NCBI GenBank assembly: GCA_964344605.1
Contig: CAYFNR010000002.1
Coordinates: 2,140 to 66,139, forward strand
From: Candidatus Woesearchaeota archaeon
GTDB lineage: Archaea; Nanobdellota; Nanobdellia; UBA10117; ARS21
DNA: 64,000 nucleotides
Reading direction: 5' to 3'
Positions 2,761-63,055 of this stretch are shown here, piece by piece. Numbering within the stretch: position 1 is the first letter of the stretch; the number at the start of each line of letters is the position of its first letter. A program made the translations under genes and the position numbers. Below the pieces are notes generated by a model, which saw only the letters and a list, made by a program, of their open reading frames with translations, ran no database searches and was not told the DNA's origin.

Positions 2761-3438
2761 TTACTCTAAAATTTTAAGAAAACCTTTCTTAGGTTCGAAG
2801 ATATCTCCTGATTTTAATAGGCCAACTATTACATTTTTAGCATCCTCTTCTTCTAATTTGGATTCTTCTATCACTTTTTTGATGTCCGCACCATTTTCTT
2901 TGTCAAGCCCTTTAATAATTTCAAGAACTTTCGTACTCAAATTTTCCTCAGATATCACTTCTACTTCCACACTTTCATCTATCTTTTTTTCTGAAGTTTT
3001 TTGTGCTTGCGGTTCTGCATCTAATTTATCTTGTATAATAGGTTTACCTAGCTCCAAACGTCGTACTAGGACCCAGTTGGGATCGTTAATGATTTTAACA
3101 ATTTCAGGTGATAGATGGATTTCCTCGTTGTATTCTCTAACTTTCCCAACAAACCGTACAACTCCACCTATTTTCACTTCTTTTATTTTGAAAACATCAG
3201 GACCAAATGCTTTGCATCGAATTGTATCTGAACCGTCATCTAGAGTAATAGTAGCATAATTCCCATCTTCAGAACTGAATTTACTGACAACTGTCGCTAA
3301 TAGATTAACACGAGATATCTGTTTTCCATTCACTTCAATGTAATTTGGGTTCCATCCTTCTTGTTTGATATAGGTACCACTAGTTAACGAGCTTATCCAT
3401 ATTTTATACGCAGTTTGTCTTTTGATTGGTGGTGCCAT
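2761..3438 (-). CDS. RPA32-like ssDNA-binding protein (OB fold + C-terminal winged helix), co-operonic with MCM
   Basis: OB-fold pattern (VNLLATVVS..ATITLDDGSDTIRCKAFG..GGVVRFVGKVREYNEEIHLSPEIVKIINDPNWVLVRRLEL) typical of RPA32/Stn1 including the DPNE..H.LE hinge; acidic linker; C-term LLKSGDIFEPKKGFLKILE wH-like motif; start/stop shares nt 3438 with MCM. Confidence 0.55.
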   Translation of the reverse strand: MAPPIKRQTAYKIWISSLTSGTYIKQEGWNPNYIEVNGKQISRVNLLATVVSKFSSEDGNYATITLDDGSDTIRCKAFGPDVFKIKEVKIGGVVRFVGKVREYNEEIHLSPEIVKIINDPNWVLVRRLELGKPIIQDKLDAEPQAQKTSEKKIDESVEVEVISEENLSTKVLEIIKGLDKENGADIKKVIEESKLEEEDAKNVIVGLLKSGDIFEPKKGFLKILE

Positions 3439-11614: not shown

Positions 11615-11634
11615 CAATATTAAGCAGAATTCTT

Positions 11635-11900
11635 GGGCTAGGCTGGCGGTTTAGGGGTCCGCTTTTACTTGAAGTCCTCTAATGCAAGAGCCGAAGCTTT
11701 GGGGGCGGCATGCTTGTTTGGTGCTGTCTTGTGAAGTAGTGTCGAAGCGTTGCCTTTGGGGGCATCACTTTCATGTGAACCTGGTCAGGCGGGGAACCGA
11801 GCAGCCATAGCGTGGTTTTGATGTGCTCCAAAGTAGTGGCGTGGAGCTGTTTCTCAAGGTTAGCAGTACTGTGCTTATGTGTCCACCTCATTGCGTGCCC
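11635..11900 (+). ncRNA. ffs: signal recognition particle RNA (7S / SRP RNA); ends approximate
   Basis: GC-rich island in AT-rich genome with no credible ORF; 11780..11816 CCUGGUCAGGCGGGGAACCGAGCAGCCAUAGCGUGG closely matches the universally conserved SRP RNA domain IV / helix 8 (compare E. coli 4.5S CCAGGUCAGGUCCGGAAGGAAGCAGCCAAGGCAG) including GGAA tetraloop. Confidence 0.65.
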
Positions 11901-11904
11901 ACTT

Positions 11905-11988
11905 GCCGAGGTCGCATAATCTGGTATTGCGCTGGCTTGCTAAGCCAGTTTCCTTCGGGATGTGCGGGTTCAAATCCCGTCCTCGGCG
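11905..11988 (+). tRNA. tRNA-Ser (anticodon GCT) with long variable arm
   Basis: Acceptor GCCGAGG/CCTCGGC, anticodon stem CTGGC/GCCAG loop TTGCTAA, long variable arm TCC-TTCG-GGA, T-arm GCGGG-TTCAAAT-CCCGT, discriminator G. Confidence 0.8.
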
Positions 11989-13941: not shown

Positions 13942-13978
13942 TAAGTTTAAAAATGGGACTTCAGATAGTTTCTTTATT

Positions 13979-14052
13979 GGGACCGTAGCTCAGCCTGGGA
14001 GAGCGCTCGACTGAAGATCGAGGTGTCATGGGTTCAAATCCCATCGGTCCCA
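13979..14052 (+). tRNA. tRNA-Phe (anticodon GAA)
   Basis: Acceptor GGGACCG/CGGTCCC, D-arm GCTC..GAGC, anticodon stem CTCGA/TCGAG loop CTGAAGA, T-arm ATGGG-TTCAAAT-CCCAT, discriminator A. Confidence 0.85.
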
Positions 14053-24926: not shown

Positions 24927-25802
24927 TTATTTCTTGCTCTTTTTTTCTTTTTTTATAGCTTCTTTCTGCAGAATAAAAATGTCTTCTTTGCTGAGCTTTT
25001 TCTTCTTCTTGAATTTATCCCTAACAGCTTCTGTTTGTTTTTGAAGAATTTCAGCGCCAGCTTTAGCTCCACCAAACATCACTCTTCCGGTAGCCATTGG
25101 TAGGCGTCCGAGACGGCTTAGATTTTTTGCCAGAAGTATGTTAAGTTGGTTAATCTGGGACTTCATAGATCTTAATGCTGCGCGTGTATTCGAACGTTCT
25201 TTCTTTATGTTAGATATTTCTTTAGATATTATTGTCAATTGATTAAAAATGTCTGTACTCTCTTTGGCCGAACCTTGTATTTTTCCATGGTACTCATCTG
25301 CAGATTGTTTGGCATTTGTTATTAAGCCCCTAATTTTCCTAAGCTCATGAAGTTCCCCTAGGCTGTTATTAATCTCTTTTAGGTCTTTCTTTAACTTGTT
25401 TATTTTGGACATGTGCTCCTTTTCTTTGGAGAAGTTAAGAACTTCTGTTTGAACTAAAAATTCAAGATTATTGATTTCTTTCTTGACTTTATTCCGCCTT
25501 TCAATTTTCTTTTTTGTACCAGAAAGAGTCTTCTTTACTTTATTTAGCTCCCCAATCAAATTTTGTACGGATTTATTCTTTTCTTCACGTAATCTCTTCA
25601 ACTCTTTGGTTCTTTTGTCAACATTATCTTTTTTCTCTTTGAGTTGGTTGGCTTTTATTATTAATTTATTCAGAGTTTCCTCTAGCTCATTTTTTTCTTT
25701 GTACTTTGATTCTTTTTTATCGCCGAGCTCTTTGAGAGATATGTTTAGCTTACGTACTTCACTCGTCACCTCATCGAGCTCACCGTTCTTTTTTTGTACC
25801 AC
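24927..25802 (-). CDS. Lys/Glu-rich coiled-coil protein (archaeal COG1340-like?)
   Basis: ~230 aa of heptad-like K/E/L-rich sequence, C-terminal basic tail; located between rpl12 and alaS in same transcription direction. Confidence 0.45.
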   Translation of the reverse strand: MVQKKNGELDEVTSEVRKLNISLKELGDKKESKYKEKNELEETLNKLIIKANQLKEKKDNVDKRTKELKRLREEKNKSVQNLIGELNKVKKTLSGTKKKIERRNKVKKEINNLEFLVQTEVLNFSKEKEHMSKINKLKKDLKEINNSLGELHELRKIRGLITNAKQSADEYHGKIQGSAKESTDIFNQLTIISKEISNIKKERSNTRAALRSMKSQINQLNILLAKNLSRLGRLPMATGRVMFGGAKAGAEILQKQTEAVRDKFKKKKKLSKEDIFILQKEAIKKEKKSKK

Positions 25803-25809
25803 TTAGCAC

Positions 25810-32544: not shown

Positions 32545-33264
32545 TTGCTCTTAATGAAACCAAGTGACAATAAAGTTCCAAAGCATGTAGGTGTAATCCT
32601 TGATGGAAATCGTCGCTTAGCGAAGAAACTCATGCTTAAGCCTTGGAAGGGCCATGAATGGGGGGCTAAGAAAGTCGAGAAGTTATTTGACTGGGCAAAT
32701 GAGCTTGGCATTAAAGAGCTAACTCTTTATACACTTTCAATCGAAAATTTTAATCGTCCTAAAACGGAATTTGAATATTTAATGAATCTTTTCAAAAAAG
32801 AATTTACGCGTTTTCTTAACGACCCGAGAGTTTATGAGCGTGGTCTTAGAGTTAACTTCATTGGACGACTTTGGATGTTGGACAGCGAGCTTCAGGATTT
32901 GATGAAGAAAGTAGAATATAAAACAAAAGAGAACAACAATTTAATTGTTAACTTTGCGGTTGCATATGGTGGCAGACAGGAAGTAGTTGATGCAACGCGA
33001 AAAATAGCCGAAGACGTCAAGCTGGGAAAGTTAGATGTTAATCAGATTAACGAAGAAATATTTTCTAAAAAATTATGGAACAGTTCCGAACCAGATCTAA
33101 TAATAAGAACTGGTGGGGAAAGAAGAACTAGCAATTTTCTAAACTTTCAGGCAGCTTATAGTGAGTGGATATTTGTGGATAAGCATTGGCCTGAGTTTGA
33201 GAAAGAGGATTTGGTTGCAGCCGTCAAAGAATATAAGCAGCGAGAAATAAGAAGAGGTCGCTAG
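32545..33264 (+). CDS. uppS: cis-prenyltransferase (undecaprenyl/tritrans,polycis-polyprenyl diphosphate synthase)
   Basis: HVGVILDGNRR substrate-binding motif, RTGGERRTSNFL C-terminal motif. Confidence 0.85.
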   Translation: MLLMKPSDNKVPKHVGVILDGNRRLAKKLMLKPWKGHEWGAKKVEKLFDWANELGIKELTLYTLSIENFNRPKTEFEYLMNLFKKEFTRFLNDPRVYERGLRVNFIGRLWMLDSELQDLMKKVEYKTKENNNLIVNFAVAYGGRQEVVDATRKIAEDVKLGKLDVNQINEEIFSKKLWNSSEPDLIIRTGGERRTSNFLNFQAAYSEWIFVDKHWPEFEKEDLVAAVKEYKQREIRRGR

Positions 33265-35592: not shown

Positions 35593-35976
35593 CTATCTTT
35601 TAGAGAGGTACTTTTTCTGCCTTAGTGAGTATATTGGAACCCCAAGCTCTTTCAGTTTTAGTGAAAAGGCAGCATCACTAGTTATAACAGCAGCCTTGTT
35701 TGTCTGTGCCCAATTTGCTATGAGATAATCAGTGTGACCTTCTCCAAACTCTTCTATCTTAAATTTTGAGTGCTTAATAATTTGTAAGGCAAGATTTGCT
35801 GCAGTTTTGTCGGAACCGCGCTTCGCTTTTTCTTTTAGATTTTCTAACTCATTAATTACTGAATCCGGAATTATGATTTGAGGATTTGGGAGTGTCAATT
35901 TCCTCACGGCTTCTTTTAAGTCAATTTTTCTTTTTACAGCGTAAATAATTGTGTTTGTGTCAATGACTATTTTCAT
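35593..35976 (-). CDS. PIN-domain protein (Fcf1/Utp24-like candidate rRNA-processing nuclease)
   Basis: MKIVIDTNTIIYAV.. PIN N-terminal acidic D, conserved T/S-x-D near C-term (VITSDAAF), 127 aa upstream of rpoE as in many archaea. Confidence 0.55.
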   Translation of the reverse strand: MKIVIDTNTIIYAVKRKIDLKEAVRKLTLPNPQIIIPDSVINELENLKEKAKRGSDKTAANLALQIIKHSKFKIEEFGEGHTDYLIANWAQTNKAAVITSDAAFSLKLKELGVPIYSLRQKKYLSKR

Positions 35977-42911: not shown

Positions 42912-43454
42912 TTGCTGTCAACCAAATTTATGAAAATTCATACTGCCAAAGGAGTTTATGTACCAAGAGAGGACTCTTTTTTGCTTGAGAAAGTCGTTAG
43001 AAAATTCTGCAAAGAAAACAAACCAAAGGCCGTTTTGGACGTCGGAACGGGAACTGGGATACAGGCAATTGCGGCAAAGCTTTCTGGAGCGCAAGAAGTC
43101 ACGGCTGTTGATATTAATCCCTCAGCTGTTAAACTTGTAAAGAAAAATGCTGAACGGAATGGAGTTGAAGTTAGAGCTTTTCAGTCTGATCTGTTTTCAA
43201 ATGTGAAAGAGTCTTTTGACTTGATAATATTCAATGCTCCTTATCTTCCATTAGATCCACCGATAGATCCCCAATGGAGTGGCGGCCGGAAGCTTATAGA
43301 AAAGTTCGTTGAGAATGCGAAGAGGCATGTCAACTCCGGTGGAAAATTGCTGTTTGTTTATTCTTCAAAATCTCCAATCAAAACAAAGCACAAAATACTT
43401 GCAGAGAATACAATGTCCGACGGAGAAATCGTTTATGTGGCAACTCTGAAATAA
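42912..43454 (+). CDS. HemK/Mtq2-family N5-glutamine (protein) methyltransferase
   Basis: Motif I VLDVGTGTGIQA, NPPY-like IIFNAPYLP substrate motif, 180 aa. Confidence 0.65.
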   Translation: MLSTKFMKIHTAKGVYVPREDSFLLEKVVRKFCKENKPKAVLDVGTGTGIQAIAAKLSGAQEVTAVDINPSAVKLVKKNAERNGVEVRAFQSDLFSNVKESFDLIIFNAPYLPLDPPIDPQWSGGRKLIEKFVENAKRHVNSGGKLLFVYSSKSPIKTKHKILAENTMSDGEIVYVATLK

Positions 43455-43461
43455 CAACCAC

Positions 43462-43476
43462 AAGTTTTTATGTAAG
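43462..43476 (+). promoter_or_regulatory. putative TATA box for structured ncRNA (tttttatgtaag)
   Basis: AT-rich TATA-like element ~25 nt upstream of onset of GC-rich segment. Confidence 0.3.
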
Positions 43477-43492
43477 CAATTACTATGCTTTA

Positions 43493-43769
43493 GAAGCAGT
43501 GGGCATACCGCATAGATTGTTGCGTTAAGATTCGTCTCTTCGCGAACGAATGGTTGTGGCAATTAGGTGTTGAGGGCAACTGCCAGTGACTTAGAGTGAC
43601 TAGTAAGGCTTTAGGCCGCGAAAGCGAACCTTATTAGACTCACTTAATCCGGCTGGCATCTCTTGTTATCTGGATTGGCTACGAACTGCAATATTTAAGT
43701 CGCCCCCATGGGCTGGAAAGTGTTGTAGGAGCAGACCTCTCCTGTGCGGGCCTAAGCTGCTACTTTTTC
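43493..43769 (+). ncRNA. unidentified structured ncRNA (~275 nt); RNase P RNA is a candidate
   Basis: GC-rich island without ORF in any frame; multiple perfect hairpins (AGGAG-CAGACCT-CTCCT, CGC-GAAA-GCG, CCCAUGGG); 5' AGAAGCAGU can pair with 3' GCUGCUACU (P1-like closure); ends in oligo-T (ctacttttt); weak resemblance to RNase P CR-I/P5-P7 (GUGGGCAUACCGCAUAG, GGGCAACUGCCAG). Confidence 0.4.
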
Positions 43770-44314
43770 TTAACAACTAAATTCTTAACAAAGAAACTAT
43801 TTGGAATCATTATGTCATGACCATTCTTAGTTCTAATATGTGTATCAATTAGATCAATCTTCTTAATCTTGCCTTCGACGTCTTTGACTTTTATTGTCTG
43901 GCCAACTTTCAACCTTTTTTTGTAGATTATATATGCCCCTGCAACTGCATTCGGAACAAAATCCTTTATACTTAAGAAAAGGCCAACAGCAACTATTACT
44001 AATAATATTGTTAAAATTTGATTGAGGAAATTCAAAGCAACTCCAATTTGATTAAGGGCCAGAATCAGGGCAAGGATATAAATTAGATACTTAATTGTGG
44101 ACCCAACGACCATATCCACACGACGCTTTTTCTTACCTTTGCCATTAAGCTTTAATCTTTGTATGGCATTTGATGCTAAATTGCCAGCGGCCCGTCCCGC
44201 CATAAATCCGACTATTATTATCAGAATAGCAATTATGAATCTTGAGAACGTTGATAGGATAGGTAAGGCCTCTTCTATTCTTACTCCAAAGAAGCTCAAT
44301 GCGCCAATTAACAT
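43760..44314 (-). CDS. mini MscS-like mechanosensitive channel
   Basis: 3 TM helices then beta domain with VGQTIKV..G.I..I....T.IRT.NGHDIMIPNS signature; lacks the usual C-terminal alpha-beta domain (184 aa). Confidence 0.55.
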   Translation of the reverse strand: MLIGALSFFGVRIEEALPILSTFSRFIIAILIIIVGFMAGRAAGNLASNAIQRLKLNGKGKKKRRVDMVVGSTIKYLIYILALILALNQIGVALNFLNQILTILLVIVAVGLFLSIKDFVPNAVAGAYIIYKKRLKVGQTIKVKDVEGKIKKIDLIDTHIRTKNGHDIMIPNSFFVKNLVVKKK

Positions 44315-62809: not shown

Positions 62810-62943
62810 CGCAACATTTAAAAACTCTACATTACGAGGCTAAGTATGGCAAGACAAGGTGATTATCCCCATCTATAGAATAGATATGTCTAGCCAGTTC
62901 TCTCGTGATTTAGGTGGTTATCCCCATAACGAGAGTTAAATGT

Positions 62944-63019
62944 GGCGAGGGTGGGGTAGTTTGGTTTATCCTCTCCGACTGTGGCTCGGAGGACCCGAGT
63001 TCAAATCTCGGCTCTCGCC
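62944..63019 (+). tRNA. tRNA-His (anticodon GTG) with genomically encoded G-1
   Basis: G-1 then acceptor GCGAGGG/CTCTCGC, anticodon stem TCCGA/TCGGA loop CTGTGGC, T-arm CCGAG-TTCAAAT-CTCGG, discriminator C (His identity). Confidence 0.65.
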
Positions 63020-63055
63020 CTTTATTTTCAGTATACTTTTATAGGAGGTTGAACT

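Follow-up and report, generated by a model that had tools for sequence, protein, structure and literature searches.

A conserved structured RNA gene of DPANN archaea with a candidate bulge-helix-bulge motif at its ends

Besides ribosomal RNA (rRNA), transfer RNA (tRNA), signal recognition particle (SRP) RNA, and RNase P RNA, few large and intricate archaeal RNAs are known to us, and none that is specific to the DPANN archaea. Here we describe an RNA gene that lies at positions 43493 to 43769 on the plus strand of a 64,000-nucleotide (nt) stretch of a Candidatus Woesearchaeota contig (GenBank accession no. CAYFNR010000002.1; this whole stretch is referred to as the window), and we compare it with the described RNAs to which it comes closest. 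In the precursors of archaeal 16S and 23S rRNA, as in the new RNA, the transcript ends pair into a stem carrying a bulge-helix-bulge (BHB) motif with a 3-nt bulge, a 4-bp helix, and a second 3-nt bulge; in the rRNA precursors, EndA cuts this motif and a ligase circularizes the product. A permuted SRP RNA of Thermoproteus is reportedly another stable RNA flanked by such a motif. The new RNA differs from these in that its body is unrelated to rRNA or SRP RNA, it is a small stand-alone gene with the motif 8 bp from both transcript ends, the 3' strand of its central helix is reused in the product, where it forms one side of a tertiary helix, and its processing is a prediction.

Archaeal RNase P RNA (Rfam RF00373 for types A and M and RF02357 for type T) is alike in length, in being an independent stable RNA gene, and in having a closing stem of the P1/P2 kind with three arms leaving the core; both also carry a conserved GGCCUA strand in a P4-like long-range helix and a second helix with P6-like topology. 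Unlike RNase P RNA, the new RNA has no covariance-model match, no CR-I or CR-V, no J2/4 or J15/2, and no bulged U; the 5' strand of its P4-like helix belongs to a distal internal loop in the arm we call B, its pseudoknots cross instead of nesting, and it possesses an extra helix (Y) and no recognizable specificity domain. Dense covarying helices, several long-range pairings, and invariant unpaired motifs are features of the OLE, GOLLD, and ROOL RNAs and of group I introns that are also found in the new RNA. Those, however, either come from bacteria or phages or are introns bordered by exons, and all of them are in Rfam, whereas the new RNA is archaeal, smaller, and fixed in position next to translation-related genes. 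As we model it, the maturation logic of the new RNA resembles that of BHB-flanked archaeal stable RNAs, and the body of the RNA resembles nothing described.

An independently transcribed RNA and its covarying fold

The noncoding gap at 43455 to 43759 is among the few long ones in a gene-dense archaeal window of about 39% GC, and the 5' end of the RNA falls within it, 38 nt past the stop codon of a HemK2/MTQ2-type methyltransferase gene. A first-pass annotation, made from the letters alone, had described the segment as a structured noncoding RNA with its own promoter and terminator, and this description is fully supported by a conserved TATA box, a terminal T run, and a covarying fold. Its remark on sharply higher GC content was correct as to the rise, which is clear, but not as to the sharpness, which is moderate: GC is 0.44 to 0.53 over 43500 to 43799 (100-nt windows) versus 0.29 to 0.39 in the immediate flanks. 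Among nine regions compared (the SRP RNA, the RNA described here, and seven other intergenic gaps), solely the SRP RNA (53% GC) and this RNA (48% GC) form GC islands, in agreement with the earlier statement that this is the second such island after the SRP RNA, which Rfam places at 11631 to 11904 with 128 bits. Nothing substantial is encoded inside, as had also been noted; the overlapping open reading frames (ORFs) are two mechanical minus-strand ones, a 65-amino-acid (aa) ORF with a TTG start at 43365 to 43562, which is the longest, and a 36-aa ORF at 43666 to 43776. The plus strand folds to -99.9 kcal/mol (z = -2.46; 4 of 200 shuffles were equally good), and the minus strand has a z score of -0.84.

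The promoter-like TATA box and oligo-T end that had been pointed out are both borne out by the homologues. The box (TTTTTATGT) is conserved at fixed spacing and its position predicts a transcription start at about 43493 to 43497, that is, at the first bases of the terminal helix; the spacing of 22 to 25 nt between the end of the TATA box and the 5' end of the RNA is common to this gene, the SRP RNA gene, and four tRNA genes of the window. The T run at 43765 to 43769 has counterparts in the homologues, where T-rich runs also come after the outer terminal helix, T1. By the comparative evidence given here, the island is a genuine, conserved, independently transcribed RNA gene.

In an nhmmer search, each of the five closest genome loci proved to have homologous sequence right behind the methyltransferase gene. 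Six more lineages, reached through methyltransferase relatives of 55 to 61% identity, have the same gene order (methyltransferase, RNA, sometimes an AsnC-family gene, MscS on the opposite strand, DRG GTPase, and Hjc). A metagenome scan using a pattern made from invariant blocks returned 27 loci, of which 20 are family members and 7 are chance matches in GC-rich coding DNA. The sources of homologous contigs include deep-ocean and oxygen-minimum-zone samples (JGI contigs Ga00668xx, Ga01149xx, and SI072). After de-duplication the set comprised 23 distinct full-length sequences including the window, representing four sublineages (30 full-length and 3 end-truncated copies). These homologues differ by 1- to 2-nt insertions or deletions, and 83 of the 288 aligned window positions (about 30%) are invariant. 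Gene content was inspected at the five closest genome loci and in the six lineages added by look-up, and in all of these the RNA lies immediately downstream of the HemK2/MTQ2 gene, the product of which is merely 53 to 62% identical across RNA-bearing loci. Where methyltransferase identity is 51% or less, profile, covariance-model, and pattern searches found no RNA at the corresponding position, and it was likewise not found at three further methyltransferase loci with 47 to 51% identity. The nhmmer profile and a covariance model of arm B (R1), run on more than 70 other loci, and the pattern UAGGCC...GGCCUA, run over all loci, gave no homologue outside the clade; two pattern scans of viral contigs gave chance matches only, again in GC-rich coding DNA. 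Members of the RNA family were found in one clade of marine DPANN (Woesearchaeota-like) archaea.

The structure was tested on a MAFFT alignment of the 23 distinct sequences (column numbers refer to this alignment, A4). RNAalifold predicted 69 pairs, 39 of them with compensatory changes. We then scored a curated model of 75 pairs, which covers T1, T3, A2, B1 to B5, C1, C2, and the long-range helix pk1: 97.1% of its cells are paired, versus 86.7% in shuffles and 39 to 46% with the partners slid. The first-pass annotation had proposed aligning the syntenic regions downstream of hemK-like genes in relatives, and this alignment does covary, with 42 of the 75 pairs changed on both sides compared with 4 to 13 in the slid controls. 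Cells with double changes number 192, versus 57 in shuffles, and none of 500 shuffles reached the observed pairing and double-change values. Several G-U pairs are invariant (for example, columns 18/297, 91/197, and 208/277), which shows that the plus strand is the functional one.

In the resulting architecture, a terminal stem (T1-T2-T3) leads into a four-way junction with 0 to 3 linker nucleotides, from which arms A, B, and C emerge (coordinates in Table 1). The helix that the first-pass annotation had suspected between the 5' and 3' ends is real and covarying; T1 has four pairs with compensatory changes, and folds of mini-constructs agree. Arm A contains an internal loop with an invariant GUUA(A) and a hairpin loop with the invariant palindrome UCGCGA; its inner helix shows compensatory changes in four of six pairs, and its outer helix has 6 to 7 bp in all sequences, with 3 to 4 covarying positions after correction for an offset of one column that MAFFT introduced between lineages. 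Two further pairings of arm A were considered and set aside: that of the UCGCGA loop with a strand of the B5 hairpin was rejected because B5 changes by an internal compensatory pair in the homologue L081 while the loop stays the same, and that of GUUAA with the B loop (3' side) has been lost from both L081 and L087, as judged by eye on the alignment columns. Arm B carries a CAAC bulge, the internal loop that holds the strands of helices X and Y, the UUAGGC internal loop, and a CGC-GAAA-GCG tip followed by an invariant AA. Its helices (columns 90-100/188-198, 105-111/180-186, 119-132/156-170, and 142-144/150-152) are paired in 98.6 to 100% of cells, with compensatory changes in 17 of their pairs; on the arm B of the window, model R1 reaches 100.7 bits. 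Arm C has invariant GGCU and GGAC at its C1 end, and its helices (columns 200-208/277-286 and 214-224/263-272) include 11 pairs with compensatory changes.

Long-range helices and the terminal stem

A search for antiparallel column runs that pair in at least 22 of the 23 sequences, which recovered the helices of the model as well, found three long-range helices (pk1, X, and Y) that link segments unpaired and invariant in the nested model. Together they are paired in 98.8% of cells, versus 12 to 52% when slid. Sequence comparison gives good support for helix X (RCUUR with URAGY; 100% of cells paired): column pair 113/229 is G-C in 17 sequences and A-U in 6, with the change from G-C to A-U having occurred at least twice independently and including a switch within the L005/L097 sublineage, and column pair 116/226 is U-G, C-G, or U-A. 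For pk1 and Y, each with few independent changes, the comparison is suggestive. Helix pk1, with the consensus (U/A)UAGGC paired to GCCUA(A/U), forms in all 23 sequences through five invariant pairs and one that is A-U in 20 sequences and U-A in 3; its GCCUAA strand is also the 3' strand of T2, and the two pairings are mutually exclusive. Helix Y (YCC(C/G) with GGR, with an equivalent CCCU(C)/(G)AGGG pairing in relatives) is paired in about 95% of cells despite a MAFFT gap offset and changes from C-G to U-A in L081. By linking arm B to arm C, X and Y produce two extra four-way junctions, {B3, X, C3, Y} and {X, B4, Y, C2}, and the modelled RNA would thereby close into a cage-like fold with nearly all bases paired.

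The terminal stem has the shape of a BHB motif. The rule for strand polarity and the position of cleavage are those of the pre-tRNA 37/38 intron, in which the central helix precedes the bulge on each strand, and the stem has this polarity, as does pre-rRNA: the order is T1-GGGC-bulge-T3 on the 5' strand and T3'-GCCU-bulge-T1' on the 3' strand. In mini-construct folds, 20 of the 23 sequences form the strict motif, with an outer helix of 8 to 11 bp, the 4-bp GGGC/GCCU helix, two 3-nt bulges, and an inner helix. As published, the strict hBHBh' motif has two bulges of 3 nt on opposite strands, a central helix of 4 bp between them, and more than 2 bp in each flanking helix (PMC3978253), and the same 20 of 23 terminal stems agree with this definition. 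Across the family, the flanking helices span 6 to 11 bp (T1) and 7 to 8 bp (T3; columns 25-31/287-293, with compensatory changes in five of seven pairs), and both covary; the exception is L087, which has no T1. The central helix (columns 18-21/294-297) pairs in all 23 sequences, one column being C or U opposite G, and the 5' bulge is 3 nt long in all 23. T1 and T3 vary freely with covariation around an invariant central helix and an invariant third A of the bulge. In the window copy, the G of the 3' bulge can pair with U43500, which leaves 2 nt.

In L087, just upstream of the predicted RNA start (3054 to 3062 of that locus), there is a stretch CUUUAGCC that is a near-copy of an internal UUUAGGCC and is complementary to a 3' GGCCUAAAG; this may be a coincidence or the remnant of a different processing stem.

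Proposed maturation and competing explanations

We propose that this is a new RNA family whose members are excised by the splicing endonuclease and probably circularized, and that excision frees GCCUA to pair with UAGGC, a proposal whose chances we consider evenly balanced. EndA would cut after the second nucleotide of each bulge, which in the window means after 43506 and after 43755, and the ends would be sealed by the RtcB ligase, yielding a circular product of about 250 to 275 nt, in the window the excised core 43507 to 43755 with 43755 joined to 43507. The junction predicted for the window reads ...GGGCCUAA joined to ACCGCAUAG, and that of the L002 group reads ...GGGCCUAU joined to ACCUUGUGA; the predicted junction-spanning sequences are GGGCCTAA followed by ACCGCATAG for the window type, GGGCCTAT followed by ACCTTGTGA for the L002 and L005 types, and GGGCCTAT followed by ACCTCG(C/T)GA for the L085 type. 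In the precursor, GCCU would be held by the leader strand GGGC; once excision has removed GGGC, T3 would be closed by a 7-nt loop, GCCUA(A/U)A, six bases of which would be free to pair with UAGGC(+1) in arm B, and this GCCUA-UAGGC pairing would lock the compact fold. By our own estimate the contact could be reached, since B1 to B3 (17 bp) would lead outward and B4 (about 10 bp) back, for a net distance of about 7 bp, which is the length of T3. Processing followed by refolding would account for one invariant hexamer being complementary to two mutually exclusive invariant partners, and also for the homologue without an outer helix, L087, in which pk1 complementarity extends to 9 bp. The mature RNA would most likely be the core of a housekeeping ribonucleoprotein, or a ribozyme.

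At about 275 nt, nearly fully paired, with three long-range helices and about 30% of its positions invariant, the RNA is under a constraint typical of ribozymes and ribonucleoprotein cores. Its ends suggest that the rRNA and tRNA splicing machinery may have been reused for a circular noncoding RNA with a built-in refolding switch. More tentatively, and with rather more doubt than conviction, we can picture a new class of archaeal housekeeping RNA resembling a miniature rRNA, with BHB ends, a circular form, GCCUA flipped into a kissing helix, and a cage of three four-way junctions. If true, this might be a ribozyme or ribonucleoprotein core of a new kind, and it could even take over the function of canonical RNase P RNA among the relatives of Nanoarchaeum, which has no RNase P.

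The chief competing view of the mechanism accepts a new and real RNA but takes it to be linear, with T1-T2-T3 a plain closing stem whose BHB shape is coincidental and with UAGGC conserved for some other reason, such as protein binding; we think this unlikely, though by no means far-fetched. Several observations weigh against excision and refolding, and some of them speak directly for a linear molecule. The processing is read from the geometry of the stem, and a plain terminal helix would show the covariation of T1 equally. Helix pk1 consists of five invariant pairs and a single covarying column, which has changed once, and helix Y is short, with part of it hidden by gaps in the alignment; the homologues all belong to a single clade, and there have consequently been few independent substitutions. 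The window copy, whose motif is of the relaxed kind, and L081 carry a 3' bulge of 2 nt (or a 1x3 arrangement) instead of 3 nt and so depart from the 3-4-3 geometry, and L087 has no outer helix and only the 5' bulge, its TATA spacing placing the start about 2 nt before GGGU; with these deviations, the motif is not universal in the family. In favor of excision, DPANN splicing endonucleases mostly have an L3 insert that is linked to cleavage of relaxed motifs (PMC5829648). What a linear RNA leaves as coincidence is that 20 of 23 sequences retain the exact 3-nt/4-bp/3-nt geometry, in the correct polarity, amid sequence change in the flanking helices, that GCCUA(U/A) matches two invariant and mutually exclusive partners, as would be natural under processing and refolding, and that pk1 reaches its 9 bp in the very homologue without the outer helix.

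As to known families, the RNA belongs to none in Rfam 15, and it is not RNase P by any feature tested. The first-pass annotation had named RNase P RNA as its leading guess and an undescribed RNA as the alternative, and had suggested a covariance-model search with RNaseP_arch, Archaea_SRP, and other Rfam families; that search has now been run, returned no family, and points to the alternative. At the gathering score, no Rfam 15 family, including RNaseP_arch, RNaseP-T, and the bacterial, nuclear, and MRP models, matches the island in a scan of the whole window, and at E ≤ 10 there is no match on 43300 to 43950 (651 nt) or on the isolated segment 43488 to 43772 (285 nt); at this threshold the archaeal SRP RNA model (RF01857) and the small-subunit, large-subunit, and 5S rRNA models likewise give no match to the island. 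The patterns GNAANNUCNGNG and ACNNNANNNNGNNUA, which reportedly describe CR-I and CR-V in generic form, are absent from 43488 to 43775, so that the earlier caution about the canonical motifs was justified; across the window they match at chance level, in coding sequence. A GGAAAG at 43715 to 43720 lies in a tertiary helix and helix C2 and not in a CR-I context. In RNase P RNAs down to the minimal type T, the joining regions J2/4 and J15/2 hold nucleotides that are universally conserved (PMC3579882); here both are 0 nt long in all 23 sequences, with C1' abutting T3' and T3' abutting GCCUA. The RNA has no P4 in the usual sense: the 6- to 7-bp pk1 uses a P4'-like 3' strand, but its 5' partner lies about 50 nt beyond arm A, in the B4/B5 loop, and a G-C pair takes the place of the bulged U. 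When the surroundings of this methyltransferase gene were scanned with Rfam at 19 other loci, DPANN and archaeal, the scans gave tRNAs only and no positional RNase P RNA. Readings as an rRNA fragment (very unlikely, as no rRNA model matches), as an H/ACA or C/D RNA (no ACA boxes inside the RNA, by eye), and as a K-turn RNA (no conserved tandem G-A motif at internal loops, by eye) were dropped.

It is nonetheless conceivable, if improbable, that the RNA is the clade's RNase P RNA in radically rearranged form, with T1 as P1, T3 as P2, arm A as P3, arm C as P15 to P17, X as P6, and pk1 as P4, the 5' strand of P4 and a P5 stub having moved to the end of a long extra helix (B1 to B4). The pk1 3' strand GGCCUA sits exactly at the place of P4', between P2-like and P1-like 3' strands, and it resembles GGCUUA, and UAGGCC resembles AAGUCC, of Escherichia coli M1 RNA. 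Helix X has P6-like topology, its 5' strand following a P5-like helix and its 3' strand lying in a P15-17-like arm. Size, GC content, an own promoter, and a housekeeping neighborhood would also fit; besides rRNA, the two large stable RNAs expected of an archaeon are RNase P and SRP RNA, and the latter is accounted for in the window. DPANN archaea have no protein-only HARP enzyme (PMC6380272), relatives of the host show decay of the RNA (a short, unfoldable RNase P RNA in Nst1 and none in N. equitans; PMC3655853), and type T RNase P RNA once escaped the archaeal Rfam model (PMC3579882), a precedent that weakens the claim of a new family. To this mapping are opposed the failure of every RNase P model even at E ≤ 10 on 285 nt, the absent CR-I and CR-V patterns, the zero-length J2/4 and J15/2, and the G-C pair replacing the bulged U; the pk1 5' strand is deep in arm B and not between P3 and P5, and pk1 and X cross where P6 nests inside P4. 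Of the five tRNA genes in the window, four have a TATA box at a distance that suits leaderless transcripts, and RNase P is needed less as a result. A scan of 45 window ORFs revealed no RNase P protein gene, nor EndA or RtcB, an absence that is uninformative for a 64-kb piece and, the window being a small part of the genome, is weak evidence against RNase P. The host lineage is related to an organism without RNase P, and the RNA would be either an unrecognizably rearranged RNase P RNA or a wholly new functional RNA. A cis element (a methyltransferase 3' untranslated region, a bidirectional terminator, or a leader or riboswitch of a downstream gene) would suit the short distance to the methyltransferase stop codon, the overlap with the convergent MscS-like stop codon, and the same-strand AsnC-family gene about 30 nt downstream in one sublineage. 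We consider it very improbable: a conserved TATA box belonging to the RNA stands between the methyltransferase stop codon and the RNA 5' end, in three of the four sublineages no gene follows on the same strand, no riboswitch family matches at E ≤ 10, and about 290 nt with about 100 covarying or invariant pairs and three tertiary helices go far beyond a terminator. The hidden frameshifted or degraded protein-coding gene that the first-pass annotation had allowed for has nothing in its favor except the two short mechanical minus-strand ORFs, and its likelihood is negligible; no frame is open in the window or the homologues, the insertions and deletions are not multiples of three, and the substitutions are paired at the RNA level, as the double-change counts given above attest.

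Neighborhood and other RNA genes of the window

The features of the gene, its bordering genes, and the SRP RNA with its adjacent tRNA are listed in Table 1.

Table 1. Features of the RNA gene and of selected neighboring genes (window positions)
Feature	Position	Strand	Sequence	Remarks
Whole RNA gene	43493-43769	+		Primary transcript, terminal helix to T run; homologues align over the full length
HemK2/MTQ2-type methyltransferase gene	42912-43454	+		Pfam MTS; upstream border of the gap
MscS-like gene	43760-44314	-		Convergent; downstream border of the gap
TATA box	43465-43473	+	TTTTTATGT	Aligns with invariant TTTAT.T box at equal spacing in homologues
T1 5' strand	43493-43500	+	GAAGCAGU	Outer helix h; pairs with 43757-43764; columns 10-17/301-308
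T2 5' strand	43501-43504	+	GGGC	Central 4-bp helix H; pairs with GCCU 43750-43753
5' bulge	43505-43507	+	AUA	UAA or AGA in relatives; predicted cleavage between 43506 and 43507
T3 5' strand	43508-43515	+	CCGCAUAG	Inner helix h'; pairs with 43742-43749
Arm A	43516-43563	+		Outer helix 43516-43521/43558-43563; inner hairpin 43529-43534/43547-43552
Arm B	43566-43670	+		Long bent rod, helices B1-B5
Helix X 5' strand	43589-43593	+	ACUUA	5' side of B3/B4 internal loop
pk1 5' strand	43611-43616	+	UUAGGC	B4/B5 internal loop, just before B5 hairpin
Helix Y 5' strand	43648-43651	+	UCCG	3' side of B3/B4 internal loop
Arm C	43672-43742	+		Helices C1, C2, and variable tip hairpin C3
Helix X 3' strand	43696-43700	+	UAAGU	C2/C3 junction
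Helix Y 3' strand	43714-43717	+	UGGA	C3/C2' junction
3' strand of both T2 and pk1	43750-43755	+	GCCUAA	Just before T1 3' strand
3' bulge	43754-43756	+	AAG	AUA in 20 relatives; predicted cleavage after 43755
T1 3' strand	43757-43764	+	CUGCUACU	Overlaps MscS-like stop codon
Oligo-T run	43765-43771	+	TTTTCTT, preceded by T43764	Likely archaeal terminator; directly 3' of T1 3' strand
Archaeal SRP RNA	11631-11904			Rfam RF01857, 128 bits, full length
tRNA-Ser(GCU)	11904/5-11989			Abuts SRP RNA, no spacer

The window DNA is that of a DPANN archaeon: the nearest relatives of its methyltransferase are from metagenome-assembled genomes labelled Candidatus Woesearchaeota or Nanoarchaeota, and its genes also include those for TBP, Spt5, L1/L10/L12, L11, L21e, L31e, L39e, S19e, S24e, S27a, eIF6, FtsY, and prefoldin. 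In one sublineage a gene for a small AsnC-family regulator lies on the strand of the RNA, about 30 nt 3' of it and before MscS (L085, 3369 to 3614; L089, 3375 to 3620; L083, 2104 to 2448); the start of the L083 ORF overlaps the 3' part of the RNA and is probably an over-extended gene call. The loci L132 (3001 to 6433) and L093, whose methyltransferase is 47% identical, retain the neighborhood of S19e, methyltransferase, MscS, and DRG GTPase, with a 58-aa ORF, a UPP synthase gene, and two AsnC genes in the place of the RNA. The UPP synthase gene of the window is at 32554 to 33264, 10 kb from the RNA, and this difference in placement indicates that the locus has been rearranged around the RNA gene.

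TATA-like octamers end 23 to 25 nt before the mature 5' ends of tRNA-Gln, tRNA-Arg, tRNA-Phe, and tRNA-Ser (1803 to 1991, 13947 to 13979, and 11875 to 11905); tRNA-Gln and tRNA-Arg form a divergent pair, 42 nt apart, with two back-to-back TATA boxes. To our knowledge, Nanoarchaeum equitans is the only organism known to live without RNase P, and by analogy with it the spacing suggests that the tRNA transcripts of the window (n = 5 tRNAs) may be leaderless, which hints that RNase P may be dispensable in the host. For tRNA-Ser, the TATA-like TTATGTGT is inside the 3' end of the SRP RNA (11875 to 11882) and ends 23 nt before the tRNA 5' end; this tRNA is therefore either cut off from the transcript of the SRP RNA or transcribed from a promoter that lies within the SRP gene. 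The tRNA-His gene (62945 to 63020) has no clear TATA box at the usual spacing; upstream of it is a direct 10-nt repeat, TTATCCCCAT, at 62863 to 62872 and 62918 to 62927, 55 nt apart.

Between the Rpo7 and S24e genes, in the translation gene cluster, the minus strand encodes a 127-aa PIN_9/PIN-domain protein (35593 to 35976) with a small nuclease fold; it does not belong to the PIN_5 (HARP) family of protein-only RNase P. Another long gap, at 25413 to 25809 (397 nt, 33% GC), is located 3' of the L1-L10-L12 genes; it has no match in Rfam, and its folding z scores are mildly negative on both strands (-2.2 and -2.4, mononucleotide shuffles).

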